A stretch of 64,000 nt of DNA from Clostridiales bacterium. GTDB taxonomy: Bacteria > Bacillota > Clostridia > TANB77 > CAG-508. The translations under genes and the position numbers were made by a program. The first letter of the stretch is position 1, and each line of letters opens with the position of its first letter. The stretch covers positions 4,127 to 68,126 of the forward strand of contig DPDV01000007.1 in NCBI GenBank assembly GCA_003534295.1. The letters are read 5' to 3'. The notes beneath the pieces were generated by a model that worked only from the letters and a program-made list of their open reading frames with translations, had not been told where the DNA came from and did not search any database. Positions 1-31,390 of the stretch are shown here, one piece after another.

Positions 1-595
1 TACCGTTTCCTTGTTCATATAGATTAAATATTAATCTAATTACATCGCTGGCTTCTTCATCTATAACAAGTTTATTTTTGCTTTCTGGGTTTCTTTTATA
101 GCCATAACATACAAAAGAGCCAATATGTAATCCTTGCTGTCTTTTACTATCAAATGTTCTTCTAATATTTTCAGATAAATCTTCTAAATACCACTCATTA
201 ACTAAACCATTAATTTGTCTTGATTTTTTGTTTCCTTTATCTAATGTATCAACATGATCTACAAGGCTAACAAATCTAACATTCCACTCTACAAACTTAT
301 TATGAAGATATTTCTCAACCATTTCCATATCACGAGTAAATCTACTTTGTGTTTTACAAAGTACAATATCAAATTTATGATTTTTAGCATCTTCTAATAA
401 TTTATTAAATTCAGGTCTTTCACTGTCAATTCCAGAATAATCCTCATCACAGTAAATGTTATAAATATCCCAACTCCTTTCTATTGCATAGTTAATTAGC
501 ATAGATTTTTGATTTTGGATACTTTCGCTTTCATCGTTTTCATGAAGCTTGTCATCATCTTCACGAGAAAGCCTACAATAAATTGCTACTCTCAT
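1..595 (-). CDS. large serine recombinase; N-terminal resolvase catalytic domain, 3' end lies beyond the window edge
   Basis: Reading frame is open to position 1. The N-terminus is MRVAIYCRLSREDDDKLHENDESESIQNQK..., the classic Y-x-R-x-S catalytic-serine context of the resolvase/invertase family. Start codon is at 593-595. Confidence 0.75.
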   Translation of the reverse strand, partial: MRVAIYCRLSREDDDKLHENDESESIQNQKSMLINYAIERSWDIYNIYCDEDYSGIDSERPEFNKLLEDAKNHKFDIVLCKTQSRFTRDMEMVEKYLHNKFVEWNVRFVSLVDHVDTLDKGNKKSRQINGLVNEWYLEDLSENIRRTFDSKRQQGLHIGSFVCYGYKRNPESKNKLVIDEEASDVIRLIFNLYEQGNG

Positions 596-660
596 AAGTT
601 TACCCTCCAATCGGTAAACTACTCATTTTGTACAATCTCATTATACAATAACAAGTAGTT

Positions 661-882
661 TTAATTAAGGCTCTTTGCAAATTCATTTACAATTAATTTA
701 TTGACAATATTATTTATAAATTTTGTAATATCATCTATATTGTCATATTTATTCTTTTCAATAACATTAAAATTTACTTTCTCACACATGATATAATCCT
801 CCCATGATATTAATTTATATTCAAAAAGGATTGTATTCGTGCAAAAATACCATTTATTGTAGGATAACTGTATTTTTGTCAA
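661..882 (-). CDS. hypothetical small protein
   Basis: 73-aa ORF between the recombinase start and the cotJC fragment. No recognisable motif. Confidence 0.25.
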   Translation of the reverse strand: MTKIQLSYNKWYFCTNTILFEYKLISWEDYIMCEKVNFNVIEKNKYDNIDDITKFINNIVNKLIVNEFAKSLN

Positions 883-1018
883 GTGAAAAATGGTTCAATT
901 TATAATTGAAAAACGGACCACTTTTAGTTTATCAAAAACAATAAATAATGCCGACAAAAAATGTAGGCATAAAATTACTTGTACAAAATAAGTAGTTACA
1001 TATATATTTTCTTTTAGG

Positions 1019-1366
1019 ATAGTTTACAAACACACACCACATGGAATAGATGTATATCCAGTATCTGCTGCTGGAAATCCATGGACTGCAAGCTATATTG
1101 CAGCAAAAGGAGATCCAATTGCTAACCTTCAAGAAGATTTAGCGGCAGAACAGAAAGCTAGGGCAACTTATGAAAAGCTAATAGATCTTTCAAAAGATGA
1201 TCCGGATGTTGTTGATGTTCTTAGATTTTTACGTCAAAGAGAAGTAGTGCACTTCCAAAGATTTGGAGAGGCGCTTCGAGGAGTGCAGGATAAACTTGCA
1301 GAAAAGAAGTTTTATATGGCAAGTTGTAATAAACAAATGTGTAATAGTAATGATAATAACACCTAA
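1019..1366 (+). pseudogene. cotJC: CotJC-like manganese-catalase-family spore coat protein, 3' fragment (lacks ~100 N-terminal codons and a start)
   Basis: Translation ...HGIDVYPVSAAGNPWTASYIAAKGDPIANLQEDLAAEQKARATYEKLIDLSKDDPDVVDVLRFLRQREVVHFQRFGEAL... matches the C-terminal half of CotJC/Mn-catalase proteins. The frame is closed by a stop at 992-994 and there is no start codon. Confidence 0.6.
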
Positions 1367-1515
1367 TAATAATTGAACTTAAAGAATGCTATAGATAAAA
1401 ATAAATTGACATGAAATTTAAATAGTGTTATAAATATATGCAATGGTAAAAAGTTGCATATATTTTGTTTATTTTATTAAGAAGAGAATAATTCAAGGAG
1501 AAGAATAAGAAATAA

Positions 1516-2403
1516 ATGGAAGAATTAAAGAAATGCGTAATATGTCCTCATAATTGCAATGTGAATAGATTAGAAGGAAAGATGGGAAGGTGCAAGTGTA
1601 AAGACAAAATTAAACTAGCATTAGTATCAACACATAATTACGAAGAACCTTGTATATCAGGAAATAATGGCTCAGGAACAATATTTTTTTCTAACTGTAA
1701 TTTGAATTGCATGTATTGCCAAAATTATGAAATAAGTCAATTGGGCAAAGGAAGAGAAATATCTATAGAAGAATTAGCAAATATTTTTAATGAACAACAG
1801 CAAAGGAAAGTGAATAACATTAATTTAGTTACTCCAACAATGTATGCATTTCAAATAATAGAAGCAATTAAAATAGCAAGAAAGAATGGACTTTCAATAC
1901 CAATTATATATAACACAAATGGATATGAAAAAGTTGAAACATTAAAAGCTTTAGATGGATACATAGACATATATTTGCCAGATTTAAAATATTATTCAAA
2001 TGAACTCTCAAAAAAGTATTCTAAGGTGGATAATTATTTTGATATAGCAACAGAAGCAATAAAAGAAATGTATAGACAAGTTGGCAAACCCAAATTTAAT
2101 AAAGATGGTATAATACAAAAAGGTGTAATTATAAGACATTTGGTTTTACCAAATCATATTCAAAACAGCAAAAATATTTTAAAATGGATAAAGCAAAATA
2201 TGCCAAAAGACATATATGTTAGTGTAATGGCTCAGTATTTTCCAACATATAAAGCCAAAGAAGACAATTATATAAACAGAAAGCTTACAAAAAATGAGTA
2301 TAAAGAAATAGAAAATTATTTATATACACTAGAACTTCAAAATGGATACATACAAGAATTAGGAGAACATGAAGAAGAATATGTTCCAAAGTTTGATTTT
2401 TAA
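1516..2403 (+). CDS. radical SAM protein, PflX/PFL-activase-like
   Basis: N-terminal Cys cluster (CVICPHNCNVNRLEGKMGRCKC) followed by the radical-SAM motif CNLNCMYCQN, which is activase-like (CxxxCxYCxN). About 295 aa, typical of the PflX family. Confidence 0.6.
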   Translation: MEELKKCVICPHNCNVNRLEGKMGRCKCKDKIKLALVSTHNYEEPCISGNNGSGTIFFSNCNLNCMYCQNYEISQLGKGREISIEELANIFNEQQQRKVNNINLVTPTMYAFQIIEAIKIARKNGLSIPIIYNTNGYEKVETLKALDGYIDIYLPDLKYYSNELSKKYSKVDNYFDIATEAIKEMYRQVGKPKFNKDGIIQKGVIIRHLVLPNHIQNSKNILKWIKQNMPKDIYVSVMAQYFPTYKAKEDNYINRKLTKNEYKEIENYLYTLELQNGYIQELGEHEEEYVPKFDF

Positions 2404-2474
2404 TTGAAAGAATGATATAAATAACATATATTTATTATCAATATGAAATGTAATAATATAAGGAGCAATAAAAT

Positions 2475-3668
2475 ATGAAGAAAAAAGTATTAGCCTCAAC
2501 TAAACCAGGATATGAATTGCCAATTGAGCAAGCTATAGAATTTTCAGGATTAGAAGCGGGAATGTGCTATATGCCGGATAATGTAGATGCTCTTTTCTCT
2601 GAAGATAAAGAAAAAACAATAAAAAGAGCGCAAGGAACAATGACATCTGGGCATCATAGCGTATTCGGACATGTGAAGTATAATTTTGCCTTTGAGGAGA
2701 TTCCTAAAATTTTAGCAATGGTTTTAAACAATGAAAAAGTATACGATACATCTGAGAAATCAGCTAGATATACCAAAATGAAAGCATCAGAGGAAGAAGA
2801 AGCATTATATGAAAAGTGGATAAAAATTTATTCTAACGAAATAGAAAAAATATATCCAAAGGTAAAGATAGCAGAAAAGACAGAACAGCAACTGGAAAAG
2901 GAAATAAAAAATAGAAATACAGCAATAAGAAAAAAGGCTCAGGAAAATGCCAGATATTTAATATCTGTATTCACACCAGCAACTACAATGGGACATACTA
3001 TAGATATTAGACAATTTAGCTATATATTGCACTGGATGGACGATTTTTGTAGGAAAGAGCAAAATTCAAAATTTAATGTAATGCTAAAGCAAGTTTTTAA
3101 AGAATTTGAAGAATTATGTGAAAAATATAAAATAGAAAGAGTAAATACAGAAGTAAAGCAACGAGGACTTTCGTTGTTTGCAAAAAGAGAAAGAGAAGAA
3201 GAGTGGGGCGAAAATTATTCTACTAATTATTTAGCAAGCTTTGCGGAGGTCGCACAAGCGCAAAGGCATAGAACAATATATTATGAAATTACATTATTAG
3301 ATGAGCCACAATATTATATTCCTTTAATTATAAAGGATACTGAACTGGAGAAAGAATGGTTAAAAGATATATCATCTTTAGCTAATAGATTTCCACAAGG
3401 AATGCTTGTAAAAGTAAATGAGAGAGGAACTGTAGAAAATTTTATTCTAAAATGTAAAGAAAGATTATGCGGAGAAGCACAATTGGAAATAGAATTACAA
3501 ACTAATGAAACACTACATAAATACTTAGAAAATACAAAAGAAAGTAAACCGATAATATATAATTACTTGTTGCCATATGCAAAAGGTGTAAGATGTACTT
3601 TTCCAGGTTTTAAATGTACTAAACCATGTATATGGGGTGCAAAAGAAGCTTTACAGAGAAAATTTTAG
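2475..3668 (+). CDS. ThyX-like (Thy1-fold) tandem-domain protein
   Basis: The first half carries the ThyX GHxSVFxH motif (TSGHHSVFGHV), a YxxxSxRY segment (VYDTSEKSARY) and an R..L....T.....T.N.R.L..F..LR-like segment. The second half carries QRHRTIYYE (RHR motif). At 397 aa it is about twice canonical ThyX. Confidence 0.45.
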   Translation: MKKKVLASTKPGYELPIEQAIEFSGLEAGMCYMPDNVDALFSEDKEKTIKRAQGTMTSGHHSVFGHVKYNFAFEEIPKILAMVLNNEKVYDTSEKSARYTKMKASEEEEALYEKWIKIYSNEIEKIYPKVKIAEKTEQQLEKEIKNRNTAIRKKAQENARYLISVFTPATTMGHTIDIRQFSYILHWMDDFCRKEQNSKFNVMLKQVFKEFEELCEKYKIERVNTEVKQRGLSLFAKREREEEWGENYSTNYLASFAEVAQAQRHRTIYYEITLLDEPQYYIPLIIKDTELEKEWLKDISSLANRFPQGMLVKVNERGTVENFILKCKERLCGEAQLEIELQTNETLHKYLENTKESKPIIYNYLLPYAKGVRCTFPGFKCTKPCIWGAKEALQRKF

Positions 3669-3711
3669 CAACAGATAAATTAAATATAGAGAATTTCAAA
3701 ATAGAAATTCT

Positions 3712-4407
3712 CTATATTTTTATACCTTCAAGTTCGTGCTCATATTTTTTATAATTAGGACAATACTTTTCAATTATATTCCAAAAACCTTTACTGTGAG
3801 TTTTATATTTTAAATGACAGAATTCGTGTATTACTATATAATCTATAATTTCAGACCTATATCTTGCTATACAAGGGCTAAAGGAAATACATCTATCATC
3901 AAAAGAAAATTTAGCAATAGTATTACCTAAGTCTTCAATGCAATAATCTTCTGGAGCAATGCCTAACAATAACCTAGCTTTTTCCATAGATTTTTCTAAT
4001 TCATTACAGCAAACTTTGAAATATAACTTTTCCATTAATATTCTCAAGATATCAGAATCTTCAAGTTTTTTATATTTAGCAGGTAAAATAACCTCAACTT
4101 TACCATTGATTAAATTGATTGTTGGTTTAATATGGTTTTTATAAAGGATGCAAATATGGTAATCATTTCCTAGTAATTTAATAACACCTTTGTCTAAAAA
4201 AGAATTGCGATTCTTATTATACTCTTCAATTTTGGAAATAATCCATTGCCTTTTTTCAATTATAACTTCTTGAATATGTCGTCTAGAAACATACCAAGGA
4301 GCGTTAACAATAACCTCATTACCATCTACGCAAATACATAAAGCGCCAGACATAGCTTTGTTCACAGTATATGGAATTACGTTATTTTTAAATTTTAAAA
4401 TACTCAT
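3712..4407 (-). CDS. YgjP/DUF45-family M48-like zinc metallohydrolase
   Basis: HEFCHL (HExxH) motif near the C-terminus. About 230 aa, with layout typical of the YgjP family. Start assigned to MSILKFKN. Confidence 0.6.
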   Translation of the reverse strand: MSILKFKNNVIPYTVNKAMSGALCICVDGNEVIVNAPWYVSRRHIQEVIIEKRQWIISKIEEYNKNRNSFLDKGVIKLLGNDYHICILYKNHIKPTINLINGKVEVILPAKYKKLEDSDILRILMEKLYFKVCCNELEKSMEKARLLLGIAPEDYCIEDLGNTIAKFSFDDRCISFSPCIARYRSEIIDYIVIHEFCHLKYKTHSKGFWNIIEKYCPNYKKYEHELEGIKI

Positions 4408-4510
4408 AAGAATTACCTCCAAACGAAAATGATTTCTCAAAAACTTTGTTCGATTATGATTATACAAAATATTGTTCGGTTTGTCAATAACTTTTTAAAA
4501 AAAATATTAG

Positions 4511-4572
4511 GACAATTAGGGACAGTCCCCAAATGTTTCATTTGCACATTTGGGGACTGTCCCTAATTGTTC
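4511..4572. repeat. perfect palindrome with 25-bp arms (CAATTAGGGACAGTCCCCAAATGT / 9-nt loop / reverse complement)
   Basis: Read directly. 4512-4536 pairs perfectly with 4546-4570. T-runs flank it on both strands. It sits in the divergent promoter region between the YgjP-like gene and ylxM. Confidence 0.8.
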
Positions 4573-4596
4573 TTTTTAGATTTTTGAGGTTAAAAG

Positions 4597-4632
4597 TATT
4601 GACAAATTGATAAAAATAGTGTAAAGTATAAT
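4597..4632 (+). promoter_or_regulatory. putative sigma-A promoter for ylxM-ffh (TTGACA, 17-nt spacer, extended -10 TGTAAAGT)
   Basis: TTGACA at 4597-4602. The downstream TAGTGTAAAGTATAAT has the same 15-mer (TAGTGTAAAGTAAT) as the repeated leader motif. Confidence 0.35.
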
Positions 4633-4683
4633 AGCATTACAAATTGAGGAAGTGATTTATTGGAAAAGAAGGTTCAAATAAGT

Positions 4684-5010
4684 ATGCTATTACAAATATA
4701 TGGTGCAATGCTTACGGAAAAACAATATGGACTTTTAGATGATTATTACAATAACGATTTGTCACTTTCGGAAATTGCTGAAAACTATGATATAACAAGG
4801 CAGGCAGTAAGAGACATTATAAAAAAGGGGGAAAATAAACTTTTCGAATTGGAAGAAAAGCTTTCGGTTATGGATAGAATGTTAAAACAAGATAAGAAGA
4901 TTCAACAGATTTTAGAAGAGCTTTGTAAAATACAAAATAGTTCATCTGATAAAAAAATTGAGAAAATTCTTAATAATGTTACAAAAGAATTAAGTTTAAT
5001 GCGAATATAA
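4684..5010 (+). CDS. ylxM: YlxM/UPF0122 putative DNA-binding protein upstream of ffh
   Basis: MLLQIYGAMLTEKQYGLLDDYYNNDLSLSEIAENYDITRQAV... matches the YlxM family. Conserved position before ffh. Confidence 0.7.
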   Translation: MLLQIYGAMLTEKQYGLLDDYYNNDLSLSEIAENYDITRQAVRDIIKKGENKLFELEEKLSVMDRMLKQDKKIQQILEELCKIQNSSSDKKIEKILNNVTKELSLMRI

Positions 5011-5028
5011 TGCAAAGGAGAGTTATTA

Positions 5029-6381
5029 ATGGCTTTTGAAGGTTTAAGTTCTAAATTACAAGCTATAACAAATAAATTAAGAGGTAAAACAAGGATTACA
5101 GAATCTGATTTAAAAGAAATGTTAAGAGAAGTAAAGCTTGCTTTACTTGAAGCAGACGTTAATTATATGATTGTAAAAGAATTTATAGGAACTATACAGG
5201 AAAAGGCTTTAGGGCAAGATGTATTAAAGTCATTAACCCCAGGACAACAGGTTGTTAAAATCGTAAAAGACGAATTAATAGAACTATTAGGAGGAACAGA
5301 GAGCAAAATTAATTTCACTCCAAATCCACCAACAATAATAATGCTTGTGGGATTACAAGGCTCAGGAAAGACAACAACAGCTGGAAAACTGGCAAATATT
5401 TTACGAAAGCAAGGAAAAAAACCATTGCTTGTTGCTTGTGATGTATATAGGCCAGCAGCGATAAAACAACTTCAAGTAGTTGGAGCACAGCTAAATATTC
5501 CGGTATTTGCAAATGAAAATTCGAAAGATGTAGTACACATAGCTAAACAAGCGTTGAATGTGGCAATTAGTAAATTAAATGATGTAATAATACTAGATAC
5601 TGCAGGACGTTTACATATTGACCAAGAGTTAATGACTGAATTGAAGAATGTAAAATCAAATGTAAAACCACATGAAATATTATTAGTAGTTGATAGCATG
5701 ACAGGGCAAGATGCTGTGAATGTTGCAACAGCGTTTAATGAGCAATTGGGAATTGATGGAGTAATACTTACTAAATTAGATGGTGATACTCGTGGTGGAG
5801 CTGCAATTTCAGTTAAAAAAGTTACTAACAGACCTATAAAATTTGTAGCTACAGGAGAAAAATTAAGTGATATAGAAGTGTTTCATCCAGATAGAATGGC
5901 ACAAAGAATCTTGGGAATGGGAGATGTTCTGTCTGTTATAGAAAAGGCAGAAGAGGCATTTGATATTGAAGAAGCAGAAAAAATAGAAAAGCAATTGAAA
6001 AAGAAAGAATTAGACTTAGATGATTATTTAATTCAATTAAGACAGATAAAAAAAATGGGGTCTTTTTCATCCTTATTAAAAATGATACCGGGAATGAATC
6101 AACTTAAAGATATAAAAGTTGATGATAAAGAATTTGAAAAAATAGAATCAATTATATGTTCTATGACAAAAGCAGAGAGAAAGAATCCTAGAATTTTAAA
6201 TGGAAGCAGAAGACTAAGAATTGCAAAAGGTAGTGGTACTACAGTACAGGAAATAAACAAATTTATGAATTCCTTTGAAATGACACAAAAGATGATGAAA
6301 AAAATGCAATCTAACAAAGGCGGAATGAAAAATATGTTAAAAAATATGGACATAGATTCATTAAAAAATATAAAAATGTAG
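5029..6381 (+). CDS. ffh: signal recognition particle protein Ffh
   Basis: GLQGSGKTTTAGKLA P-loop, SRP54 GTPase domain and Met-rich C-terminal M-domain. 450 aa. Confidence 0.95.
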   Translation: MAFEGLSSKLQAITNKLRGKTRITESDLKEMLREVKLALLEADVNYMIVKEFIGTIQEKALGQDVLKSLTPGQQVVKIVKDELIELLGGTESKINFTPNPPTIIMLVGLQGSGKTTTAGKLANILRKQGKKPLLVACDVYRPAAIKQLQVVGAQLNIPVFANENSKDVVHIAKQALNVAISKLNDVIILDTAGRLHIDQELMTELKNVKSNVKPHEILLVVDSMTGQDAVNVATAFNEQLGIDGVILTKLDGDTRGGAAISVKKVTNRPIKFVATGEKLSDIEVFHPDRMAQRILGMGDVLSVIEKAEEAFDIEEAEKIEKQLKKKELDLDDYLIQLRQIKKMGSFSSLLKMIPGMNQLKDIKVDDKEFEKIESIICSMTKAERKNPRILNGSRRLRIAKGSGTTVQEINKFMNSFEMTQKMMKKMQSNKGGMKNMLKNMDIDSLKNIKM

Positions 6382-6393
6382 GAGACTGTTATT

Positions 6394-6966
6394 GTGAGTA
6401 TAAAGATAGTATCAGAAAGAACAAAAGCAGAAAAAGAATGGGAAAAAAGAAAAATAGAAATAGAAGAAATGCTAGAAAATGCAATAATAGAAATTTGTTA
6501 TTTTTTTGAAGGTACTGAAACAAATGTGGGAGAGCGCTTAATTGAGTTAGTACATTACTGTGCTCAAAAGCTAATGCAGAAAGATATAAAAGATGAGGAA
6601 AAGGCTAATTTTGAAAAATACTTAAAGGAGCCAATAGAAGAAGGATTAAAGTATATGATATGCGAATACTGCAATGATGATAGAGCAAATCTCAAAAAAA
6701 ATAATAGAAAATATATAGAATATTTTTTAGGCATGTCAATGATATTAAATGAAACTATGGAAATAAACATAAAAGCTCCAAAACTATTACCATACTATAG
6801 GAACTTGGAAAGGCAATATAAACAAGCAAAACTACAAATGAATCCAAATCATCAAAAAAGAATAGAACAAATGGAAAGAGCATTAGGACTTATAGAACCA
6901 AGTAACGATGAAAGAACAGAGGGAAAAGTAATAGAAATAATAAAAAGAAATGATAGGGAAAAATAA
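6394..6966 (+). CDS. hypothetical protein inserted between ffh and rpsP
   Basis: 190-aa ORF with a GTG start and no recognisable domain. It sits where ffh and rpsP are usually adjacent. Confidence 0.45.
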   Translation: MSIKIVSERTKAEKEWEKRKIEIEEMLENAIIEICYFFEGTETNVGERLIELVHYCAQKLMQKDIKDEEKANFEKYLKEPIEEGLKYMICEYCNDDRANLKKNNRKYIEYFLGMSMILNETMEINIKAPKLLPYYRNLERQYKQAKLQMNPNHQKRIEQMERALGLIEPSNDERTEGKVIEIIKRNDREK

Positions 6967-7025
6967 ATAAGTATTTAATTTTTTAGATTTATATAAATAA
7001 AAGCATTTTGAAAGGGGTGAATTAC

Positions 7026-7259
7026 ATGGTAAAAATAAGATTACAAAGACAAGGTGCAAAAAAAGCTCCATTTTATCACATCGTTGTTGCGGATTCTAGA
7101 TGTCCAAGAGATGGAAAAATAATAGAAAAAATAGGAACATATAATCCTATGACAGAACCATCTACAATAGTATTAGACAAAGAAAAAGTAGAACAATGGA
7201 TAAAAAACGGTGCAAAACCAACAGATTCTGTTAAGGCTTTGATAGAAAAAGCTAAATAG
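7026..7259 (+). CDS. rpsP: 30S ribosomal protein S16
   Basis: [41 protein letters not shown], with an AGGGGTG RBS. Confidence 0.9.
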
Positions 7260-7278
7260 AAAAAAGGAGAATTTAATT

Positions 7279-7509
7279 ATGAAAGAAATTCTAGAAACTA
7301 TAGTACTTAACATTGTGGAAAATAAGAATAATGTTGAAGTACTAGAAAAAATAGAAGAAACCACTATAGTATATGAAGTAAAAGTTGAAAAAGAAGATAT
7401 GGGTAAAATTATAGGTAAGCAAGGAAAAGTTGCTCAGGCTATAAGGACACTTATAAAATCTATTGGTGCAAAAGAAAAGAAAAAAATAGTGGTTAAATTT
7501 GTTGAGTAA
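7279..7509 (+). CDS. KH-domain RNA-binding protein (YlqC-like)
   Basis: GKIIGKQGKVAQAIRTLI KH motif. Conserved position between rpsP and rimM. Confidence 0.75.
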   Translation: MKEILETIVLNIVENKNNVEVLEKIEETTIVYEVKVEKEDMGKIIGKQGKVAQAIRTLIKSIGAKEKKKIVVKFVE

Positions 7510-7515
7510 GAGGAA

Positions 7516-8034
7516 ATGCTAATGCAAAAATATTTTGAAGTTGGTCAAATAGTAAATACATTTGGAATAAATGGAACTGTAAAGGTAAAACCTTTTACAG
7601 ATGAAATTGAAAGATTTGAAGAATTGAAGAATGTATTAATTGACAAAAATAATAAACTTATTAAATGTGAAATAGAAAATGTGAAATATCAAAAGCAAAT
7701 GGTTTTGCTTAAATTTAAAGGATTAGACAACATAAATCAAGTAGAACAATATAAAGGGTGTTACCTAAAAATAGAAAGAAAATATGCAAAAAAATTGCCA
7801 GAGGGAACATATTTTATAGCAGATTTAATAGGGCTAAATGTATTTACAGAGGATGGCAAACTTCTAGGATATTTGGAAGACATATACAATGCAGGAAGTA
7901 GCGACATTTATGTTGTGAAAACAGAATTGGGCAAGCAGGTACTTTTACCATCAATAAAAGAGGTAATAAAGCAAGTAGATTTAGAAAATGAGAAGATAAT
8001 AGTTCATTTACTTAAGGGTTTAGTGGAGGATTAA
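7516..8034 (+). CDS. rimM: 16S rRNA processing protein RimM
   Basis: Conserved operon position. Length and PRC-barrel-like C-terminus are consistent with RimM. Confidence 0.85.
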   Translation: MLMQKYFEVGQIVNTFGINGTVKVKPFTDEIERFEELKNVLIDKNNKLIKCEIENVKYQKQMVLLKFKGLDNINQVEQYKGCYLKIERKYAKKLPEGTYFIADLIGLNVFTEDGKLLGYLEDIYNAGSSDIYVVKTELGKQVLLPSIKEVIKQVDLENEKIIVHLLKGLVED

Positions 8035-8715
8035 ATGAAATTTGATGTACTTACTCTTTTTCCGGAAATGTTTGATGGACTAACTAAAAGCATAATTGGA
8101 AAAGCAAGAGAAAGAAAATTAATTGACATTAATTTAATAAACATTAGGGATTTTTCTACTGATAAGCATAAAAAGGTAGATGATACTCCATATGGTGGAG
8201 GCGCAGGAATGGTTATAAGACCAGATGTTGTATATAGTGCATATTTATCAGTAAAGGATAAAAACGCTAAAGTAATATATTTATCGCCTCAGGGAAAAAC
8301 TTTAAATCAAACTAAAGTAGAAGAACTATCAAAGGAAAAACATTTAATTTTACTATGCGGACATTACGAAGGAATTGATCAAAGAATATTAGATGAAATT
8401 GTAGATGAGGAAATATCCATAGGAGACTATGTTTTGACAGGCGGAGAAATACCAGCAATGGTGTTAATTGATTCTGTAAGTAGATATATAGATGGAGTTA
8501 TAAATAAGAACTCAATTTCAGAAGAAACATTTGCAAATGGACTTCTGGAATATCCACAATATACAAGACCAGAAATATTTTTAGGAAAAAAAGTTCCAGA
8601 TGTTTTATTATCAGGACATCACGAAAATATAAAGAAGTGGAGAAACCAAGTTTCTTTACAAATAACTAAAAATAAAAGACCAGATTTATTAAAAAAGGAA
8701 GGAGGATATCAATAA
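8035..8715 (+). CDS. trmD: tRNA (guanine37-N1)-methyltransferase TrmD
   Basis: [14 protein letters not shown]-terminus and SPOUT fold motifs. Confidence 0.9.
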
Positions 8716-9251
8716 TGGATATCATAAAATCAGTAGAACACGAACAATTGAAAAATAAGATACCAGAACTTAGAGTTGGAAATACTGTAAGAGTACACCA
8801 AAGGATAAAAGAAGGAAACAGAGAGAGAGTTCAAGTATTTGAAGGAATTATAATAAAAAAACAGGGTGGAGGAGTAAATGCTACATTTACTGTAAGAAAA
8901 ATTGCTTATGGAGTAGGTGTAGAAAAAACATTTATGGTTCATTCTCCAATGGTAGAAAAAGTAGAAGTAGTAAGAGTAGGTAAAGCAAGAAGAGCAAAAC
9001 TATATTACCTAAGAGATAGAGTTGGAAAAGCAGCTAAGACAAAAGAAAATATAGGTGCAAGAATAGAAAACAAAGAAATAATAATAAAAGAAGAAGTTAT
9101 AGAAGAACCTATATCTGAAGAAGCAACAGTATCTGTTGAAAATGCAGCAGAAGAAGCACCAGCTGTAACAACAGAAACTACAGTTGTAGAAGAAGTTGTT
9201 GATACAGTAAAAGAAGAAAATGTTGAAACAGTAAAAGAAGAAAATAAATAA
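8715..9251 (+). CDS. rplS: 50S ribosomal protein L19 with ~60-aa acidic C-terminal extension
   Basis: The N-terminal ~115 aa match L19. The tail is rich in E, V and T ([53 protein letters not shown]). Confidence 0.85.
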
Positions 9252-9295
9252 GAAAAGTTACTTCGTCATATGTACGTTGGATTAACTTAATAATG

Positions 9296-9330
9296 AAAAT
9301 AGAATTTGTCTCAAGACAAATTCTATTTTA
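9296..9330 (+). terminator. rho-independent terminator after rplS (bidirectional with the convergent Lon-like gene)
   Basis: AAAATAGAATTTGTC-TCAA-GACAAATTCTATTTT hairpin with a T-run. Confidence 0.6.
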
Positions 9331-9358
9331 GCATTATATGGAAAATTATTTTACTATT

Positions 9359-11755
9359 TCATTTGTTAAAATATTTACTGCTATTAAGTGCGTACTTTTT
9401 TAGTTTTTCATAGGCTAAGTAATTAATACTTCCTGCAGGAAAATTATCATTTTCATCCTTTTTTCCGGCAGGTACGCCAGTTAAGATTTCTATACCTTCA
9501 TCTATTGTAGATACAGCATATATATGAAATTTTCCATCTTTGACAGCTTGTACTATTTCGTCTGATAAATTCAAATTTTTTACATTTTGTTTAGGAATTA
9601 ATACTCCATGAGAACCAGTTAAACCACGCATTTTGCAAATTTGGAAAAAGCCTTCTATTTTGTCATTTACACCACCTACTGGCTGAATTTCGCCTTTTTG
9701 ATTTACAGAGCCAGTAACAGCTATAGATTGGTTAATAGGTATTTCAGAAAGACTTGATAAAATTGCATAAAGTTCTGTACTAGAAGCGCTGTCGCCATCA
9801 ACTCCATTATACAATTGTTCAAAACATATACTAGCATTTAATGACAATGGTATATTTTGGGCAAAGGTTTGACCTAAGTAACCATTTAAAATAAGTATAC
9901 CTTTTGAATGAGTTGCCCCAGAGAGTTCGACTTCTCTTTCAATATTTATGATTCCACCTTTTCCTATATATGTGTTGGCGGTTATTTTTACTGGTTTACC
10001 GAAAGAATAATCACCAATATTCATAATTGTGAGTCCATTTATTTGACCAACAGCATAAGAGTCTGTATTAATTAGCAAAGTACAATCTTTTATCATTTCT
10101 AAATATCTAGAGTCATATTTTTTTATTCTTTCAGCTCTTTCTTTTAATGCCATATCAACATATTTGCCGGTAACAATTTTGGATTTATCTAGTTTAGCCC
10201 ATGTAGCTGCTTCGCCAACTATTTCTGCCAAATCATTAAATTTAGTAGACAATTTGGTTTGGTCATCAGCAAGTTTAGATGCATATTCTACAATTTTTGC
10301 CACAGCAGATTTATCTAATGGAGATAATTCTTCTTGGTCACAAAAGCCTTTTACAAATCTTGCTAACTTGTTCATATTTTCCACTGTTTTAGGAGCATCG
10401 TCTTCAAATTCTACCTTTATTTTAAACAATTTTCTAAAATCCGAATCCATTGATAAAAGAGTTTGATAAATATTTTCATCTCCTATCAATAAAACTTTTA
10501 AATCTAATGGAATAGGCTCTGGCTTTAGTGAAATTATAACCATGGAAGAACGAGCATCTGCAGTATTTTCTATTCCAATCTCTTTTGTCCTTAATACTTT
10601 TTTTAATGCTTCATAACACAAACTATTTGATAAAATATCATTAGCTTGAAATATAATATATCCACCATTTGCCTTATGAAGTAGCCCAGGCTTTAGCATT
10701 GTGAAATCAGTTTTTAATGCACCAAAATAGTTTTCATATTCTAATTTGCCGAAGATATTGTGATAAGAATAGTTTGAGTCCATTATAACAGGAGCTCCTT
10801 CTAGTGTGCTATTATCAATAAAAAGATTAACTCTATAATTAAGCCAAGGTTTAATTATGTCTTGTTTTACTGGTTGAATGGTCTTTCCGCCTTCAGAGTT
10901 TTTATCTTCTGAAATGAAGTGTTCAATATTTTTTAAAATGTCTTTCTTAATATCATCTAAAAATTTATTTATTTTTTTATTTCTTTTGTATTTGGATTTT
11001 ATATAATTTATGTGAGTATTTACAGTCAATAGAGCAACATTAGACTGCCATTCTTGGATTTTCTTCTCGGAATCTCTTTCTATAGATTTTATTTCAACAA
11101 TTGCATCCATAATATGTTCTTGAACAATTGTAGACTTATTTTCATATTCCTGTTTGATTTGATCGTCCAATTTATCAAACTCATCTTCTGCAATAGCTTT
11201 TCCGTTCATAATAGGCATCATATATATACCATTTTGCGAAGATTTAACTTGAAATCCATACTCAGAAGATTTTTTATTTAATTTTTCCATTAAGACACTT
11301 CTTTTGTCCTCGAATTCTTGCTTTATTATTTTTTTCTCTTTTTCAAATTCTTCATTATTAAAGGTAGTTTTAATATCAACTTTAATATCAGTAATAAATC
11401 TGTTCATAGTGTCTTGAAAGTCTTTTCCATTTCCAGCAGGCAAAGAAACAGCAATAGGCTCATTTGGATTGTCAAAGTTATAAATGTAGCACCAGTCACA
11501 AGGAGTTTTCTTTTTTTTGCAAATTGTTTCTAAATAATTTTTAGAATACATTGTTTTTCCAACGCCACTAGGACCCTCTAAATATAGGTTATATCCTTTA
11601 ACATCAACATTCAAACCAAATTCTAATGCTCTTATGCCACGATCCTGACCTATTCCGGTATGAATAGGTTCAACATCATCAGTTGTTTCAAATTTGAAAA
11701 TGCTAGGATCACAAACTGATTTTAAATTTTTATAACTTAATTCATTTTTTTTCAT
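9359..11755 (-). CDS. Lon-like ATP-dependent protease (AAA+ ATPase N-terminal region plus C-terminal S16 protease domain, LonB-like DGDSAS active site)
   Basis: Walker A GPSGVGKT. C-terminal motif GVDGDSASSTELYAILSSLS with catalytic Ser. 798 aa. Confidence 0.75.
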   Translation of the reverse strand: MKKNELSYKNLKSVCDPSIFKFETTDDVEPIHTGIGQDRGIRALEFGLNVDVKGYNLYLEGPSGVGKTMYSKNYLETICKKKKTPCDWCYIYNFDNPNEPIAVSLPAGNGKDFQDTMNRFITDIKVDIKTTFNNEEFEKEKKIIKQEFEDKRSVLMEKLNKKSSEYGFQVKSSQNGIYMMPIMNGKAIAEDEFDKLDDQIKQEYENKSTIVQEHIMDAIVEIKSIERDSEKKIQEWQSNVALLTVNTHINYIKSKYKRNKKINKFLDDIKKDILKNIEHFISEDKNSEGGKTIQPVKQDIIKPWLNYRVNLFIDNSTLEGAPVIMDSNYSYHNIFGKLEYENYFGALKTDFTMLKPGLLHKANGGYIIFQANDILSNSLCYEALKKVLRTKEIGIENTADARSSMVIISLKPEPIPLDLKVLLIGDENIYQTLLSMDSDFRKLFKIKVEFEDDAPKTVENMNKLARFVKGFCDQEELSPLDKSAVAKIVEYASKLADDQTKLSTKFNDLAEIVGEAATWAKLDKSKIVTGKYVDMALKERAERIKKYDSRYLEMIKDCTLLINTDSYAVGQINGLTIMNIGDYSFGKPVKITANTYIGKGGIINIEREVELSGATHSKGILILNGYLGQTFAQNIPLSLNASICFEQLYNGVDGDSASSTELYAILSSLSEIPINQSIAVTGSVNQKGEIQPVGGVNDKIEGFFQICKMRGLTGSHGVLIPKQNVKNLNLSDEIVQAVKDGKFHIYAVSTIDEGIEILTGVPAGKKDENDNFPAGSINYLAYEKLKKYALNSSKYFNK

Positions 11756-11762
11756 TAGTTTT

Positions 11763-12218
11763 TCACTCCTTCTTTAAATATAATGACATTAAGATGGCAT
11801 TATCTGTGTTATTATAATATTTCTTTCTTAAGCCAACTTGTTTAAAATTATATTTTTTATATAATGCTATTGCAGAAGTATTATTTTCATTTACTTCTAA
11901 GGTAATAGAACCGTCTTTTTGAGAAATTGCAAAATTTATTAAAAACTCTAGTAGAGCAGAACCAATACCACATCTACGTAAATCTTTTCTTACAGCAATA
12001 TTCATAATATTTAATTCATCGATAATTCTTAAGGCACCAATAAATCCTAAAATATCACAATTGTTTGTTGCAATAAAATATATGGTATTAATATCAGATT
12101 TAGAGAGTTCAGAACGTAGAGTATTAATATTCCAAAAATCATCAAAATTTTCTAAGCCTATAGAATTAATTTTTTCTAAATCATCTAAAGACATTTTTCT
12201 TACAAAAATGTTAGACAT
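11763..12218 (-). CDS. rimI: ribosomal-protein-alanine N-acetyltransferase RimI (GNAT)
   Basis: GNAT motif RRCGIGSALL. Conserved position after tsaB. Start chosen at MSNIF, overlapping the tsaB stop. An alternative start lies 24 nt downstream. Confidence 0.65.
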   Translation of the reverse strand: MSNIFVRKMSLDDLEKINSIGLENFDDFWNINTLRSELSKSDINTIYFIATNNCDILGFIGALRIIDELNIMNIAVRKDLRRCGIGSALLEFLINFAISQKDGSITLEVNENNTSAIALYKKYNFKQVGLRKKYYNNTDNAILMSLYLKKE

Positions 12219-22575: not shown

Positions 22576-22589
22576 TTATGGAGGATACA

Positions 22590-25085
22590 ATGAAAAGAAT
22601 CATTAAGGGAATTTTTTTATTTGTTGTAATTGCACTATCTCTAGTATTTGCTTACCCATTAAATACTTATGCGCTAACTGAACAAACATCTTATGTAAGT
22701 ATTGATAATACACAAAATTTAAAAGTTGGAAGTTTATCTTTCTCAAGTATTTCATTTAGGAATTATTCTTCCACTTCTACTCAAGCATTTGGATTAACAG
22801 GTGTAGTTGCTAATAGATCTAGCGATACTATTAGTTATACTTCAACAGCTTATTATTATGATTCAAACTATAATTTAATAGCGCAAGGGTATAATTCAGG
22901 AACAGCAATTTCAGGAACTAGCAATTTTAATCAAATGTCTAATTTAAGTATTTTAGGGGAACATAGTATTAATGAAATATATTATTATCGTTTATCAATT
23001 AATATAAGTGGTACTACTAATTCAGCAGGAACAATCAATTCATCGAGTTTAACACCTAGTAAAAATTGTCAATATAGTTCTTACGATTATGTTCTTGATA
23101 AGTATGATATTAATATTATTGTTAATGAAAATAATACTTTTGATATAACTGAAACAATTACAGCATATTTCAATGTTACCAAACACGGAATATTTAGAAC
23201 TATTCCATTAAAAAATACAATTACAAGATTAGATGGTACAACATCAACCAACCGTACTCAAGTGACAAATGTTAGTGTTGATAATGAATATACAATATCT
23301 AGAAAAAATGGTAATTATAAATTACAAATTGGGTCTGCTAATCGCACGTTAACTGGTGAGCAAAAATATGTCATTAAATATACATATAATTTAGGAAAAG
23401 ATCCAGCGAAAAATTATGATGAATTATATTATAATATAATTGGAAATGAGTGGGACACAGTCATTGGTAATATAACTTTTTCAATTACCATGCCTAAAGA
23501 CTTTGATTCCAGTAAATTAGGCTTTTCATCAGGAAATATAGGTTCAACAGATAATAGTAAAGTTAAATATAATGTTAGTGGAAACAAAATAACAGGAAGC
23601 TATAATGGTGTTCTTAGTGTTGGACAAGCACTAACTGTTAGATGTGAATTGCCTGAAGGATATTTTGTAGGTGCAGGGCTAAATATAAATATAATGGATT
23701 ATATTATGTTCTTAATTCCTGTTATATTTTTAGTAATAGCAATATTATTGTGGTATAAATTTGGTCGTGATGATCAAGTTATAGAAACGGTTGAGTTTTA
23801 CCCACCAGAAGGATTAAATAGTTTAGATGTTGGCTTTTTATATAAAGGTAAGGCTGAAAATAAAGATATAACATCATTATTAATATTTTTAGCAAATAAG
23901 GGATATCTTGAAATTAATAACAAAAAAATTAATTTAAATTCTGAAAAGATAAATTTAAATCAAGATTCAGAAAATAGTGCTAATCAAAAAATAATTGAAT
24001 TGCAAAATAAAATAAATGAAGAAAGAATAAATAATCCAAATTCTAAAAAAATTAAGTATTATGAAAATATGTTAGACATTTATAAAAATATTGATACTCC
24101 AATTGATTATGAACAATATGGCCTTAAATCTTCAATTAATAAACTAAATAGAAAAAATAAGTTTTTTATAAAAAAATTGAAAGATTATGATGGAACAAAT
24201 ATAAATGAACAATGGTTTATGGATGGATTGTTTGAATATGATAGAACAGAAGTTACAGATAAAATGCTATACAATAATTTCTATATAACAAATAATAGAA
24301 TATTGCATAATGTTAACAACAAACAAAATATGGATAAAATATTTGAAAAATCTGCTACAAACAAAAAATTTCTAATTATTTTAATGATTATTGCTACCTA
24401 CTGTTTGATTACAATACCGCCAATATTTAATTATGGACAACCAGAAACATTAATTTTTGCATTACTTTTTTCAGGTATTGGTTTTTCGGTTTTATTTAGA
24501 ATGTTATTTGGTAAGACACCTATTCCAGTTAAAATATTTGGTTTAATTTGGGGATTGGGATTTGGTGGAATGCCTTGGACATTTATGGTATTACCCGCAA
24601 TAACTCAAGATATATCATATCTAATTGGTTATGTTGTAGGAATAATATGTGTGTTAGGAATGATATTGTGTCTAGTATATCTTCCCAAAAGAACAAAGTA
24701 TGGTAATGAAATGCTAGGAAAATTAAAAGGATTTAAAAACTTTTTGGAAACTGTAGAAAAAGAAAGATTAAAAGCATTAGTTATGCAAAATCCAAATTAT
24801 TTTTATGATATTCTACCATATACTTATGTTTTAGGTGTATCTGATAAGTGGATTAAAAAATTTGAATCAATATCATTACAAGCTCCATCTTGGTATGATA
24901 GTTCTAATGGTTTTGATTTTTCTTCTTTTGGAACATTTATAAAATCTACTATGGTTTCTGCTCAAAGTGCTATGTCGTCAAGTCCATCTAGTTCTTCTGG
25001 TGGATCCTCAAGTGGCGGTGGGGGATCTTCTGGTGGAGGTTCATCTGGAGGCGGCTCCGGCGGTGGCGGTGGCGGCTCTTGGTAA
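22590..25085 (+). CDS. DUF2207-like membrane protein with long N-terminal extension and C-terminal poly-Gly/Ser tail
   Basis: Typical LemA partner architecture: signal peptide, extracellular domain, TM segments, Gly/Ser-rich tail (SSGGSSSGGGGSSGGGSSGGGSGGGGGGSW). An extra ~150-aa Ser/Thr/Asn-rich N-terminal region and an internal Asn/Lys-rich insert are present. Confidence 0.55.
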   Translation: MKRIIKGIFLFVVIALSLVFAYPLNTYALTEQTSYVSIDNTQNLKVGSLSFSSISFRNYSSTSTQAFGLTGVVANRSSDTISYTSTAYYYDSNYNLIAQGYNSGTAISGTSNFNQMSNLSILGEHSINEIYYYRLSINISGTTNSAGTINSSSLTPSKNCQYSSYDYVLDKYDINIIVNENNTFDITETITAYFNVTKHGIFRTIPLKNTITRLDGTTSTNRTQVTNVSVDNEYTISRKNGNYKLQIGSANRTLTGEQKYVIKYTYNLGKDPAKNYDELYYNIIGNEWDTVIGNITFSITMPKDFDSSKLGFSSGNIGSTDNSKVKYNVSGNKITGSYNGVLSVGQALTVRCELPEGYFVGAGLNINIMDYIMFLIPVIFLVIAILLWYKFGRDDQVIETVEFYPPEGLNSLDVGFLYKGKAENKDITSLLIFLANKGYLEINNKKINLNSEKINLNQDSENSANQKIIELQNKINEERINNPNSKKIKYYENMLDIYKNIDTPIDYEQYGLKSSINKLNRKNKFFIKKLKDYDGTNINEQWFMDGLFEYDRTEVTDKMLYNNFYITNNRILHNVNNKQNMDKIFEKSATNKKFLIILMIIATYCLITIPPIFNYGQPETLIFALLFSGIGFSVLFRMLFGKTPIPVKIFGLIWGLGFGGMPWTFMVLPAITQDISYLIGYVVGIICVLGMILCLVYLPKRTKYGNEMLGKLKGFKNFLETVEKERLKALVMQNPNYFYDILPYTYVLGVSDKWIKKFESISLQAPSWYDSSNGFDFSSFGTFIKSTMVSAQSAMSSSPSSSSGGSSSGGGGSSGGGSSGGGSGGGGGGSW

Positions 25086-27003: not shown

Positions 27004-27654
27004 ATGATAGTAAATACGCACGATGAAGAATTGATAAAAAAGTTTTTATTTAAATTATATTGTTGTTCTGAAGAAAAAGATTGGAAAATATCTCATGGTT
27101 TTATGGCATTACAGTATTTATTATATAGAAATTTTTCATCTCCAAAATTATTGAATAAAATGAAACCATATTCTTCAGAAATTGTTGAATTTATATCAAA
27201 GTATTATAAAAATGACTGGCGAAAAAATATAATCAGTATTGAAATTGAAAATCAAATTAATAAATTAATTTATGCTGATACACCAATAAGTTTTTTTAAG
27301 TTTTTGGAAATCATTTCAATAAAGAATAAAAATGTGCTACAAGCACAAGCATATAATAAAAACTATTTTGACTCCATTACAAAAAACATTGAATTAACTA
27401 AGGGACTTACAAATAATAAAAAGAAAATTAATTATACAAAGGATGAATTAAAGGATATTTATTTAAATAAATTAAAAATTGATAGTAACATGTGGCAATC
27501 TATCAACGATTTATGCGATAGAAGAAATAAAAATCCACTTTGTCATGCTAGTTGTGATGCTTTTTCAAATAAGCAAGATATTTCGATTTCAATTTTAAAT
27601 GATATTAATGAAATAAATAATTTAGTTGATGATATTATTAAATTATACATTTAG
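27004..27654 (+). CDS. hypothetical protein; frame is open upstream to ~26635 without a start codon (possibly 5'-truncated)
   Basis: 216-aa ORF. The in-frame upstream extension of ~120 codons has no ATG/GTG/TTG. No domain recognised. Confidence 0.35.
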   Translation: MIVNTHDEELIKKFLFKLYCCSEEKDWKISHGFMALQYLLYRNFSSPKLLNKMKPYSSEIVEFISKYYKNDWRKNIISIEIENQINKLIYADTPISFFKFLEIISIKNKNVLQAQAYNKNYFDSITKNIELTKGLTNNKKKINYTKDELKDIYLNKLKIDSNMWQSINDLCDRRNKNPLCHASCDAFSNKQDISISILNDINEINNLVDDIIKLYI

Positions 27655-27804
27655 CAAGTATAAGTTGTATATCTTTTAGTAATTTTGGACAAATATCTAA
27701 AAATATGATTATCTAAGTTTTGCCAAATTATAAAATTTGTGATATTATAATCACAACAAAAAGAACTGAGTTTCCTCAATTTTTGAAAGTTAGGATAAAT
27801 TAGT

Positions 27805-28669
27805 CTATTTGTTTTCGTATAAACAATTTGAAGAGCATAGCTTGTATATAATTTTGTACAATTTGGTTTCGCATGCAATTATACACTTGTAATGATGTTT
27901 GCCTTCGGATTGTTTTTTTCTGAAAAACAAATAAATAGAATTAGATGTATTAGCATGTGCACTTATTTGAAGTATAATTGTTACGACATTAAAAAGAATT
28001 GTTCTACCAAATTTACATCCCGTTTTAGAAATAGCCCCGTGATACGCAGAAATACCAGATTGAGATGTTACTGAATCAATTCCTAAAAAAGATACAAATT
28101 GATATTTATCATCAAATCTTGTATTGACAAATAAAATAGGATGAGGAAAATCATGTATAAAATTTAAAGCTAAATCATCATATAAATCATTAAAAACAAG
28201 GTTAAATTCGGGAAAAACAATTTCAATTAATTGTTTATATCTGTTCTTTAATCTTGTTTGTCCTTCAAATAATGACCAATATTGTCTAGCAAGTGGATTA
28301 TACATAAAGTATTCATCATTTTTATAGTAAAAATTATCGATTGTGCCTAAATAACATCTAGCAATTTTAAAACAATCTAATTTATCAGTTTTAGATTTAT
28401 TTAAAGTATCTTTAAATTGTTTAACTAGTTTAGGATTCATAACAACAGTATCAATGCCTTTTGATCTAAAATAATTTTCTACAGGCAAATGATAAATAGA
28501 AGTTGATTCCATCACAACAATTAAATTGGAATAATTTTTGATAGAATTAAATAAATTATCAAACTCATTTTTATTGTGCTCAATTAAAGTGGCATCAATA
28601 ATAATGTTTTTCAACTCATCAATAAACACTTTTGCCTTTAGCAATATCAAAACTTAAAATATGTTTCAT
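27805..28669 (-). mobile_element. IS110-family transposase gene, frameshifted near codon 14
   Basis: RBS-ATG MKHILSFDIAKGKSVY* carries the conserved GIDVAK-type N-terminus. A +1 frame continues ...VVMESTSIYHLPV...SFLGIDSVTSQSGISAYHGAISKTGCKFGRTILF, the IS110 C-terminal motif. A single-nucleotide indel in an A-run gives a pseudogene or a sequencing error. Confidence 0.65.
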
Positions 28670-28958
28670 AAAAACTCCTTTCATTAAGATTTTGGTTAAC
28701 ACCATATTGAATTACCTATATTCCTACACGCTTAATCATCCGAACTCTAATATTAAAATTAGTTTCCATTATCTACAACCGAATTAATAAATAATCATAT
28801 GGCAGACATTCATACTTTCGCACTCGAAGTGCCTGTTATACTCCGTCTTTACCGATACTTGTTATAATAACAAAAAACATAAAAAAATCAAAAATTTTAA
28901 CTTGAAGTCTTTATGTTTAACATTATACGTGTTATAATTATCCCAGGAGTTGAGGAAA

Positions 28959-29936: not shown

Positions 29937-29953
29937 CAAATAAAGACGATAGT

Positions 29954-31390
<1,437 letters not shown>

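Follow-up and report, generated by a model that had tools for sequence, protein, structure and literature searches.

We analyzed a stretch of 64,000 nucleotides from a Clostridiales bacterium (NCBI GenBank assembly GCA_003534295.1, contig DPDV01000007.1, positions 4,127 to 68,126; in the following called the window), at the left end of which the 3′ part of the spore-coat gene cotJC lies next to a large serine recombinase gene, here called LSR1, that points away from it (Table 1). The first 1,039 nt are the right end of a DNA element, called element 1 below, whose full length of 2,917 bp is known from contigs 99.9% identical to the window. The remainder is ordinary chromosome with a radical-SAM gene, thyX, ffh, rpsP, rimM, trmD, rplS and others, and the G+C content is about 28% in element DNA and host DNA alike.

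An open reading frame (ORF) without a start codon (992–1366, plus strand) matches the Pfam family Mn_catalase (PF05067; E=1.7e-25) at profile positions 114–198 of 284, that is, only with its C-terminal part. An earlier note on this DNA had recognized this C-terminal part of CotJC but placed it at 1019–1366 and the closing stop codon at 992–994. The in-frame stop is the TAA at 989–991, positions 992–1039 are element DNA that is read through, and cotJC-derived sequence begins at 1040 with His100. From there on, the segment is 100% identical to residues 100–207 of a natural intact allele (protein P0413). A search of the whole window found no further cotJC, no cotJA and no cotJB.

LSR1 starts, as had been noted before, at position 595 (ATG, complement of 593–595) and is separated by 444 bp from the junction with cotJC; this interval contains a conserved ORF of 42 amino acids, orf42. 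The protein begins with MRVAIYCRLSREDD, shows the motif YCRLSRED at its N-terminus, and the part inside the window matches the Pfam Resolvase domain (PF00239) with E=3e-23. The complete protein, encoded on the public contig L001, has 521 amino acids and the domains Resolvase, Recombinase, Zn_ribbon_recom and DUF4368 (PF00239, 1.3e-22; PF07508, 1.6e-28; PF13408, 2.1e-08), hence the catalytic resolvase, recombinase and zinc-ribbon/coiled-coil parts of a large serine recombinase. It matches PHROG 95 (integrase) with 8e-109, and among named proteins the transposon resolvase TndX comes closest, with 31% identity across the whole length. Because all its NCBIfam matches (XisF best, then CcrB and CcrC) stayed below threshold, we assigned no named recombinase equivalog.

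The other side of the element was found on the same contig L001, a public gut-metagenome scaffold reached via the radical-SAM protein and 99.92% identical to window positions 1–12000 (window position = L001 position − 8485). There, a 36-codon middle piece of cotJC (ELAHLEMVGSLVHQLTEGVTIEELEKAGLSAYYTDHG) lies 2.9 kb further left than the fragment seen in the window. Comparing the left junction (attL), the right junction (attR) and an empty site (attB) from the same species, we found the common core to be CATGG, at window positions 1040–1044, and not in the region 995–1018 for which a direct repeat had been proposed. The arms on the element side, GGATAGTTTACAAACACACACC and GGTGGGTTTGGAATATATCC, form an imperfect inverted repeat around this core, as is typical of the attP sites of serine integrases. 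The insertion of element 1 into cotJC took place at this 5-bp core, by site-specific recombination of the conservative type.

The search for a 5′ half of cotJC, proposed in the earlier note, succeeded on the same record, but the immediate partner of the window's fragment is the middle piece, because a second recombinase element of 17.2 kb (element 2) splits the gene again at codon 65/66. Contigs L187 and L001 both belong to ERZ28642313 scaffold_6, in which cotJA, cotJB and cotJC codons 1–65 precede the middle piece by 17,184 bp and are oriented like it. The order of the locus is thus cotJA, cotJB, cotJC codons 1–65, element 2, cotJC codons 66–101, element 1, cotJC codons 102–207 and the radical-SAM gene. 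By Pfam, the cotJ operon encodes CotJA, CotJB and Mn_catalase, the interrupted cotJC being its third gene, and on related contigs a SpoIIP gene lies upstream of cotJ. The Mn_catalase match and the position behind cotJA and cotJB place the reconstructed protein in the CotJC/manganese-catalase family; its match to NCBIfam ManCatBAC is below the cutoff of that model, as expected for the short CotJC subfamily.

Table 1 Features of the cotJC interruption at the left end of the window and attachment sites of the three elements.
Feature	Window position	Strand	Details
LSR1, 5′ part	1..595	-	amino acids 1–198 of 521; large serine recombinase gene of element 1, leaves the window at its left edge
Stem-loop just before LSR1 start	597..620	-	stem AGTTTACC/GGTAAACT; loop GATTGGAG holds the Shine-Dalgarno sequence
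orf42–LSR1 leader	616..661	-	TATAAT (645–640) between 8-bp inverted repeats AAACTACT (661–654) and AGTAGTTT (623–616)
orf42	661..789	-	42-amino-acid ORF directly upstream of LSR1; ribosome-binding site GGGAGG; called as a gene on public contigs
Block of ~40 bp upstream of orf42	808..845	-	TTGCAC-N17-AATATAAAT, includes ATACAA; from six-member family alignment
Terminator-like hairpin inside right end of element 1	948..970	-	ATGCCTACA-TTTTT-TGTCGGCAT, then T-rich run; read from the sequence
attR P arm, element side	1017..1039	.	GGATAGTTTACAAACACACACCA; imperfect inverted repeat of attL-side arm GGTGGGTTTGGAATATATCC
Crossover core of element 1	1040..1044	.	CATGG, codons His100–Gly101; common to attL, attR and empty attB
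cotJC 3′ segment	1040..1366	+	last 108 codons, His100–Thr207 (1040–1363), stop 1364–1366
attB of element 1			empty site in L004 (same species), ...ACAGATCATGGAATAGATG...; TATACAGAT-CATGG-AATAGATGTATATCC
attL of element 1			L001, core at L001 6608–6612, ...GATCATGGGGTGGG...; TATACAGAT-CATGG-GGTGGGTTTGGAATATATCC
attR of element 1			...ACCACATGGAATAGATG...; GGATAGTTTACAAACACACACCA-CATGG-AATAGATGTATATCC
Junction sequences, element 1			attB1 TATACAGATCATGGAATAGATGTATATCC; attP1 ACACACCACATGGGGTGGGTTTGG, ACACACCACATGGGGTGGGTTTGGAATA
att site of element 2			Glu65/Leu66; core GAAT; near-perfect inverted-repeat arms AAGCGACCTCTTTCATGGGC / GCCCATAAAGAGGTCGCTT
Junction sequences, element 2			attB2 GGTACTGAAGAATTAGCGCATTTAG; attP2 CATGGGCGAACGAATATGGCCCATAAAG
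att site of element 3			Ala135/Glu136 (codon 135/136); core CAGA; inverted-repeat arms GTTGCACT / AGTGCAAC

Removing elements 1 and 2 in silico from core to core and joining the three pieces yields a CotJC of 207 amino acids that is, by exact-sequence look-up, verbatim the natural protein P0413 (nr MBS1339839.1), indexed in 431 blocks of the collection. On long contigs, the P0413 gene has cotJB on one side and the radical-SAM gene on the other, and the locus is free of elements. The skin-like split-gene structure that had been proposed is therefore borne out by a partner junction 2,917 bp upstream, by strains with empty sites and by an excision product that exists in nature.

The same species carries every combination of occupied and empty sites. 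We found element-free strains (L201–L210), strains with element 1 only (L196, L197, L199 and L200, the corresponding fragment P0362 occurring in 466 blocks), one with element 2 only (L004) and one in which three elements occur together (L218); the empty sites are documented in L004 for site 1 and in L196 for site 2. Each insertion is thus precise and independent of the others, and occupancy is polymorphic. Counted in blocks, the exact orf42 protein of element 1 occurs in 7,567, the fragment ending at site 2 in 2,414 and the intact allele in 431, and most sampled genomes of the species carry a split cotJC.

The site-2 fragment, P0376, is the N-terminal piece of the window's species, found via cluster membership; it has 68 amino acids, ends with ...NDVGTEE/YGP and appears in NCBI nr annotated as a fragment of a ‘manganese containing catalase’. 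It was absent from the 120 matches listed in protein searches with the middle plus C-terminal part, with the N-terminus of a relative and with CotJB. Two other candidates for pieces from this species, P0248 and P0169, were rejected; they belong to other species that have other elements in cotJC.

Element 2 is bounded by its own recombinase gene, LSR2 (535 amino acids), located to the left of the middle piece and ending about 100 bp from the attR of the element. Its size varies among strains from 7.6 kb (L192) to 17.2 kb; the largest form carries an epimerase, a two-component system and a surface protein of 1,530 amino acids, and in L188 a phage-like segment with a tyrosine integrase is nested inside. 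Across these variants (L187 10390–20207, L001 1–6500, L192 and L188) the cargo is adhesion- or surface-related, with a sortase, a repetitive surface protein of ~1,300–1,660 amino acids, a HisKA_7TM kinase with response regulator and the epimerase. The module of kinase, 379-amino-acid protein and regulator also occurs in the element of a sister species, with ~74% DNA identity. Element 3 (in L003, L198 and L218) has two tandem recombinases and sortase/pilin cargo.

The genes of element 1 are all on the minus strand, in the order orf42, LSR1, an ORF of 64 amino acids (orf64), an ORF of 73 amino acids that is probably an antitoxin, and a ParE-family toxin gene. This is a mini-element without phage character, much smaller than a prophage: among the PHROGs only the integrase and a ParE-like toxin matched, the small ORFs having no match, so that phage structural, replication or lysis genes were not found, and its DNA had no match in the phage collection. 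A search of this collection and of IMG/VR for an excised circle, or for anything related to the element, gave nothing useful. We rejected a prophage on the basis of the PHROG result. A mobilizable transposon of the TnpX/TndX type was rejected as well, since Pfam detected no Mob, Tra or other transfer gene within the 2.9 kb and the 24 longest orf42-bearing contigs, when read, all had the element at the same site in cotJC (24/24).

Next to the recombinase, orf42 recurs in five other members of the element family in which it was detected, with 66–81% identity to the window copy, while the other cargo varies. It was not detected beside the recombinase of L078, a contig that ends ~1 kb beyond that gene. 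The protein had no Pfam or PHROG match and no homology to known directionality factors; we regard it as the leading candidate for a recombination directionality factor or a regulator.

The region around orf42 holds several conserved sequences. The stem of the stem-loop in front of LSR1 is altered on both sides in L114, L130 and L078 with the loop GATTGGAG unchanged, as judged by eye and not by a formal covariation count. The same positions, 597–620, had appeared in our sigma-70 and terminator scan as a terminator-like site on the plus strand, which we discarded as the ribosome-binding stem-loop of the recombinase read on the wrong strand. The leader between orf42 and LSR1, conserved with its TATAAT in L082, L127 and L114, is possibly an internal promoter plus operator, and for the block upstream of orf42 a role as promoter or operator is probable. 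A TTGACA...TACAAT promoter upstream of orf42 was dropped; its spacer is 15 nt and it is not conserved in the family. In the scan of positions 1–1600, sites were no more numerous than expected by chance; the hairpin at the right end of the element was not reported because its stem has one mismatch. Upstream of cotJA, a sigmaE-like motif (AAATATT-N16-TATACAAA) was seen by eye only.

To judge the state of the split gene, we compared cotJC of the window's species with that of the sister species (NCBI nr entries ‘Clostridium sp. CAG:798’); in both, most sampled copies are interrupted at site 2. The ratio of non-synonymous to synonymous substitution rates (dN/dS) was 0.027 for codons 1–65 and 0.044 for the middle and C-terminal pieces (dS ~1). 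Among neighboring genes, the ratio was 0.054 for GlgP, 0.083 for pyruvate kinase and 0.13–0.15 for the group of cotJA, cotJB and an acyl-ACP thioesterase gene. LSR1 gave 0.05–0.14 across family members, and two strains of the species differ in it by 5 non-synonymous and 20 synonymous substitutions. These ratios indicate strong purifying selection on the cotJC pieces, despite the majority of split alleles, and on LSR1, and the constraint would fit a functional recombination module together with a cotJC that is still in use. If the gene is used while split alleles are in the large majority, precise excision would be required in the cell that makes CotJC.

Similar interruptions occur in related uncultured Clostridia. 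Among the 120 best matches to the CotJC N-terminus, 45 fragments end at site 1 with the same element-derived tail (..YYTDHG/VGLE(Y/S)IQ..) in many species-level variants, and 32 end at site 2. In L081, the two halves of cotJC lie on either side of a 3.85-kb element related to element 1, and the recombinases of the two elements share 89% identity; the related element of L078 lacks the toxin module, which is variable or absent among the members of this family. Relatives of LSR2 occur at site 2 in L049, L060 and L085, and a 60% relative of LSR1 occupies site 3 in L053. The sister species, whose fragment P0375 is found in 3,556 blocks, has a 14.0-kb element at site 2, both ends of which were recovered in L117 and L049. 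In a further common gut species, that of CotJB P0248 (L086–L092), a recombinase element lies near the start of cotJC and leaves a 3′ fragment of 158 amino acids. Taken together, this one gene is targeted at four or more sites by at least four recombinase lineages. The L086–L092 element encodes a 537-amino-acid serine recombinase and Big_14 proteins, and in some strains nested elements with a Mob_Pre relaxase, sigma factors and another resolvase follow behind. Outside the sister species the radical-SAM gene is located elsewhere, so synteny with relatives is uninformative for the upstream neighbor.

We consider element 1 a skin-like intervening element that is excised to rebuild cotJC, and give this reading a probability of roughly 0.6. 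Excision would probably take place in the sporulating mother cell; mother-cell expression of cotJ is known from B. subtilis. LSR1, probably aided by orf42 as directionality factor, would excise the element from the mother-cell chromosome during sporulation and so rebuild cotJC in the only cell needing CotJC, while the forespore chromosome would retain the element and pass it on. In growing cells, the toxin-antitoxin pair would penalize its loss, and where two or three elements are present, each would need its own recombinase for excision. The genome encodes the sporulation-linked proteins SpoIIP, CotJA, CotJB, CotJC, spore photoproduct lyase and a LonC-type protease.

Several points weigh against this interpretation. 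The organism is known from metagenomes only and is uncultured, its sporulation being deduced from the gene content, and we infer excision, its timing and the circular form. In B. subtilis, CotJC is dispensable for spore formation. TndX and TnpX both insert and excise without a directionality factor, and as LSR1 is TndX-like with a DUF4368 tail, its excision need not be developmental. We found no clear sigmaE- or sigmaK-type promoter for LSR1 or orf42, the conserved block upstream being ambiguous. No sample contained both the occupied and the empty junction. Since the elements are polymorphic and the dN/dS values span a long time, these values may in part reflect periods or lineages with the intact allele.

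A wider version of the proposal is tentative and, in our view, somewhat less likely than not. In it, cotJC would be a multi-site landing pad for up to three unrelated elements in series within its 624 bp, all of which would have to be excised in the mother cell before CotJC could be made, amounting to a combinatorial DNA rearrangement during development; element 1 would be a minimal domesticated module stabilized by its toxin-antitoxin pair, and orf42 would represent a new family of directionality factors.

The strongest competing explanation, though in our view an unlikely one, is a plain insertional knock-out, in which horizontally spread elements held by their toxin-antitoxin modules land in the conserved cotJC, the gene is inactive in carriers and the intact frames merely reflect recent insertion. 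An inactive cotJC could be tolerated because CotJC is dispensable, and the polymorphism among strains, the place of LSR1 in the TndX-like, DUF4368-bearing group and the lack of an identified sporulation promoter upstream of orf42 and LSR1 would all be compatible with it; the ParE toxin module could raise the frequency of the element whatever its cost. Yet the cotJC pieces are among the most constrained genes (dN/dS 0.027–0.044 versus 0.05–0.15 for neighbors) in a setting where the split allele is the majority. Neither the cotJC pieces of the split copies examined from this species nor the fragment proteins of the 466 and 2,414 blocks contain a frameshift or premature stop. The 45 clusters with the site-1 tail and the 32 with the site-2 tail reach their junctions in an open frame, as seen without a systematic check, whereas a different group of contiguous cotJC copies, from other species, does carry a 1-nt frameshift. 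Also, the convergence of at least four unrelated recombinase lineages on one mother-cell gene is the pattern of experimentally proven intervening elements.

We regard as improbable a reversible switch that is independent of development, with low-frequency integration and excision during growth producing mixed spores with or without CotJC as a form of bet hedging. Recombinases of the TndX/TnpX type, to which LSR1 is similar by our computation, are generally bidirectional without an accessory factor, and occupied and empty sites occur in every combination among strains of the species. A toxin-antitoxin module should, however, select against loss in growing cells, a small ORF is conserved beside the recombinase as in systems with directionality factors, and the two states were never seen in one sample.

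Finally, a dead remnant or assembly chimera, that is, an orphan pseudogene piece or false join, might be suspected from the window alone, which lacks the 5′ part, cotJA and cotJB, but is refuted by the same junction in dozens of independent assemblies, the 5′ pieces with cotJA and cotJB on the record of L001 in the same orientation, and pieces that join exactly into a natural allele.

The excision of intervening elements from mother-cell genes by serine recombinases is established for sigK, spsM, spoVFB, spoVR, gerE and yabG (PMC5595907, PMC4191935, PMC5025042, PMC10747680). The skin element in sigK measures 48 kb in B. subtilis and 14.6 kb in C. difficile, with a range of 2.6–48 kb in 15 Firmicutes, and a skin-like element lies in cotJC of Laceyella sacchari (bioRxiv 10.1101/2022.02.25.481979). 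A passage in bioRxiv 10.1101/2021.11.22.469490, citing Abe et al. 2013, names cotJC as a frequent integration locus. Both the kind of element and the target gene were therefore known already. These earlier reports concern the same host gene interrupted by a recombinase-bearing element, but are one-line bioinformatic mentions from other taxa. New to the present case are fully resolved att sites together with the matching empty sites, several interruption sites within one gene and their serial occupation by two or three elements, and data on population frequencies and selection, all for an abundant gut species, as well as a compact toxin-bearing element with a conserved 42-amino-acid partner ORF and very high prevalence in this common species.

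With skin, element 1 shares the recombinase gene at the edge beside a 3′ gene fragment, the interrupted mother-cell gene, the short core and the restoration of the ORF by precise excision; in skin, too, the cargo differs except for the recombinase, and minimal versions of a few kilobases exist. It differs in targeting cotJC instead of sigK, in a recombinase closer to the TndX type and in its ParE toxin-antitoxin genes and orf42; moreover, two to three independent elements share one 624-bp cotJC, and here developmental excision is what we infer. In Bacillus cereus ATCC 10987, the gin element of gerE (PMC5595907) is likewise not a phage, interrupts a small mother-cell gene, combines a serine recombinase (GirC) with the small accessory factor GirX and has an inverted-repeat att site with a short core. 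At 28.6 kb, it has three recombinase genes, and its excision and directionality factor have been demonstrated experimentally, compared with 2.9 kb, one recombinase and a candidate factor in element 1.

For SPbeta in spsM (PMC4191935, PMC5499854) and for the yin element of C. botulinum yabG (PMC10747680), as proposed for element 1, a spore-envelope gene is restored in the mother cell when a serine integrase excises the element. Unlike element 1 with its lack of phage genes, they are prophages or prophage-like and tens of kilobases long. The integrase of SPbeta is constitutive and its small directionality factor controlled by sporulation, a possible model for orf42. The heterocyst elements of Anabaena in nifD, fdxN and hupL are comparable in that excision in a terminally differentiated cell restores a gene, and XisF, itself a large serine recombinase, is the best sub-threshold NCBIfam match of LSR1; phylum, cell type and target genes are different. 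Tn5397 and Tn4451, small clostridial elements that excise as circles, encode the closest named relatives of LSR1 (TndX and TnpX; 31%, DUF4368 tail). The core reported for them is a GA dinucleotide, compared with CATGG in element 1, which in addition lacks both resistance cargo and genes for mobilization (Mob) or conjugation and was seen only at one conserved site.

These results extend precisely reversible, possibly programmed, gene interruption from cultured Bacillus and Clostridium models to an abundant uncultured human-gut Clostridia species with a small genome. They explain the cotJC fragments of 65–137 amino acids annotated as ‘manganese catalase’ in thousands of metagenome assemblies. 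Should excision be developmental, a cotJC that needs two or three independent excisions would be unusual among spore formers. The three natural recombinase/att sets, with attB, attL, attR and attP of ~50 bp each, are potential genome-engineering tools, among them a compact 2.9-kb unit with a candidate 42-amino-acid directionality factor.

In other species, we observed an extra single C in 11 of ~169 collected cotJC copies (L063, L066, L070, L072, L073, L074, L075, L121, L122, L123 and L133), at about locus position 10175–10200 (gene start 10001), which creates the rare codon CGG in the zero frame. It is placed between Ile61 and Gly62 (AT(A/T/C) C GGN ACN GAA) or between Leu66 and Gly67 ((C/T)T(T/A) C GGA CAY). 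Before the extra C, the reading frame runs unbroken from the Met in all copies whose 5′ end is present (L066 begins at the contig end), and after it the +1 frame stays open for 135–160 amino acids, up to an apparently normal C-terminus. The pattern resembles programmed +1 ribosomal frameshifting, conserved and located at a hungry codon at most five codons from site 2; the window's species does not have it. In L009 (4441–14341; also in L111), an insert of ~4.7 kb ending in a serine recombinase gene lies between cotJA-cotJB and an intact cotJC, and an orphan second copy of cotJC residues 62–198 follows 3.3 kb downstream, which suggests that the element supplied a 3′ part of its own to replace that of the gene.

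Elsewhere in the window, a spore photoproduct lyase gene and a gene for a sigma-70-family factor (55218–56216 and 42807–43577) are consistent with a spore former. An unrelated mobile patch at 27004–31384 comprises a HEPN/AbiA-like gene (27004–27654), an IS110-family transposase gene (27805–28650, minus strand), a Mob_Pre relaxase gene (29954–31153, minus strand) and then a resolvase fragment of 73 amino acids; beyond it lies a Fic-domain gene (32979–33974). Upstream of the patch, the exact 835-amino-acid DUF2207 protein encoded at 22578–25085 was found in only 12 contigs. Full-length relatives of LSR1 with 29–46% identity are encoded on human faecal records of 4–9 kb named ‘Bacteriophage sp.’ (MT837840.1, MT839718.1, MT838398.1 and others), which could be small recombinase elements excised as circles and not phages.

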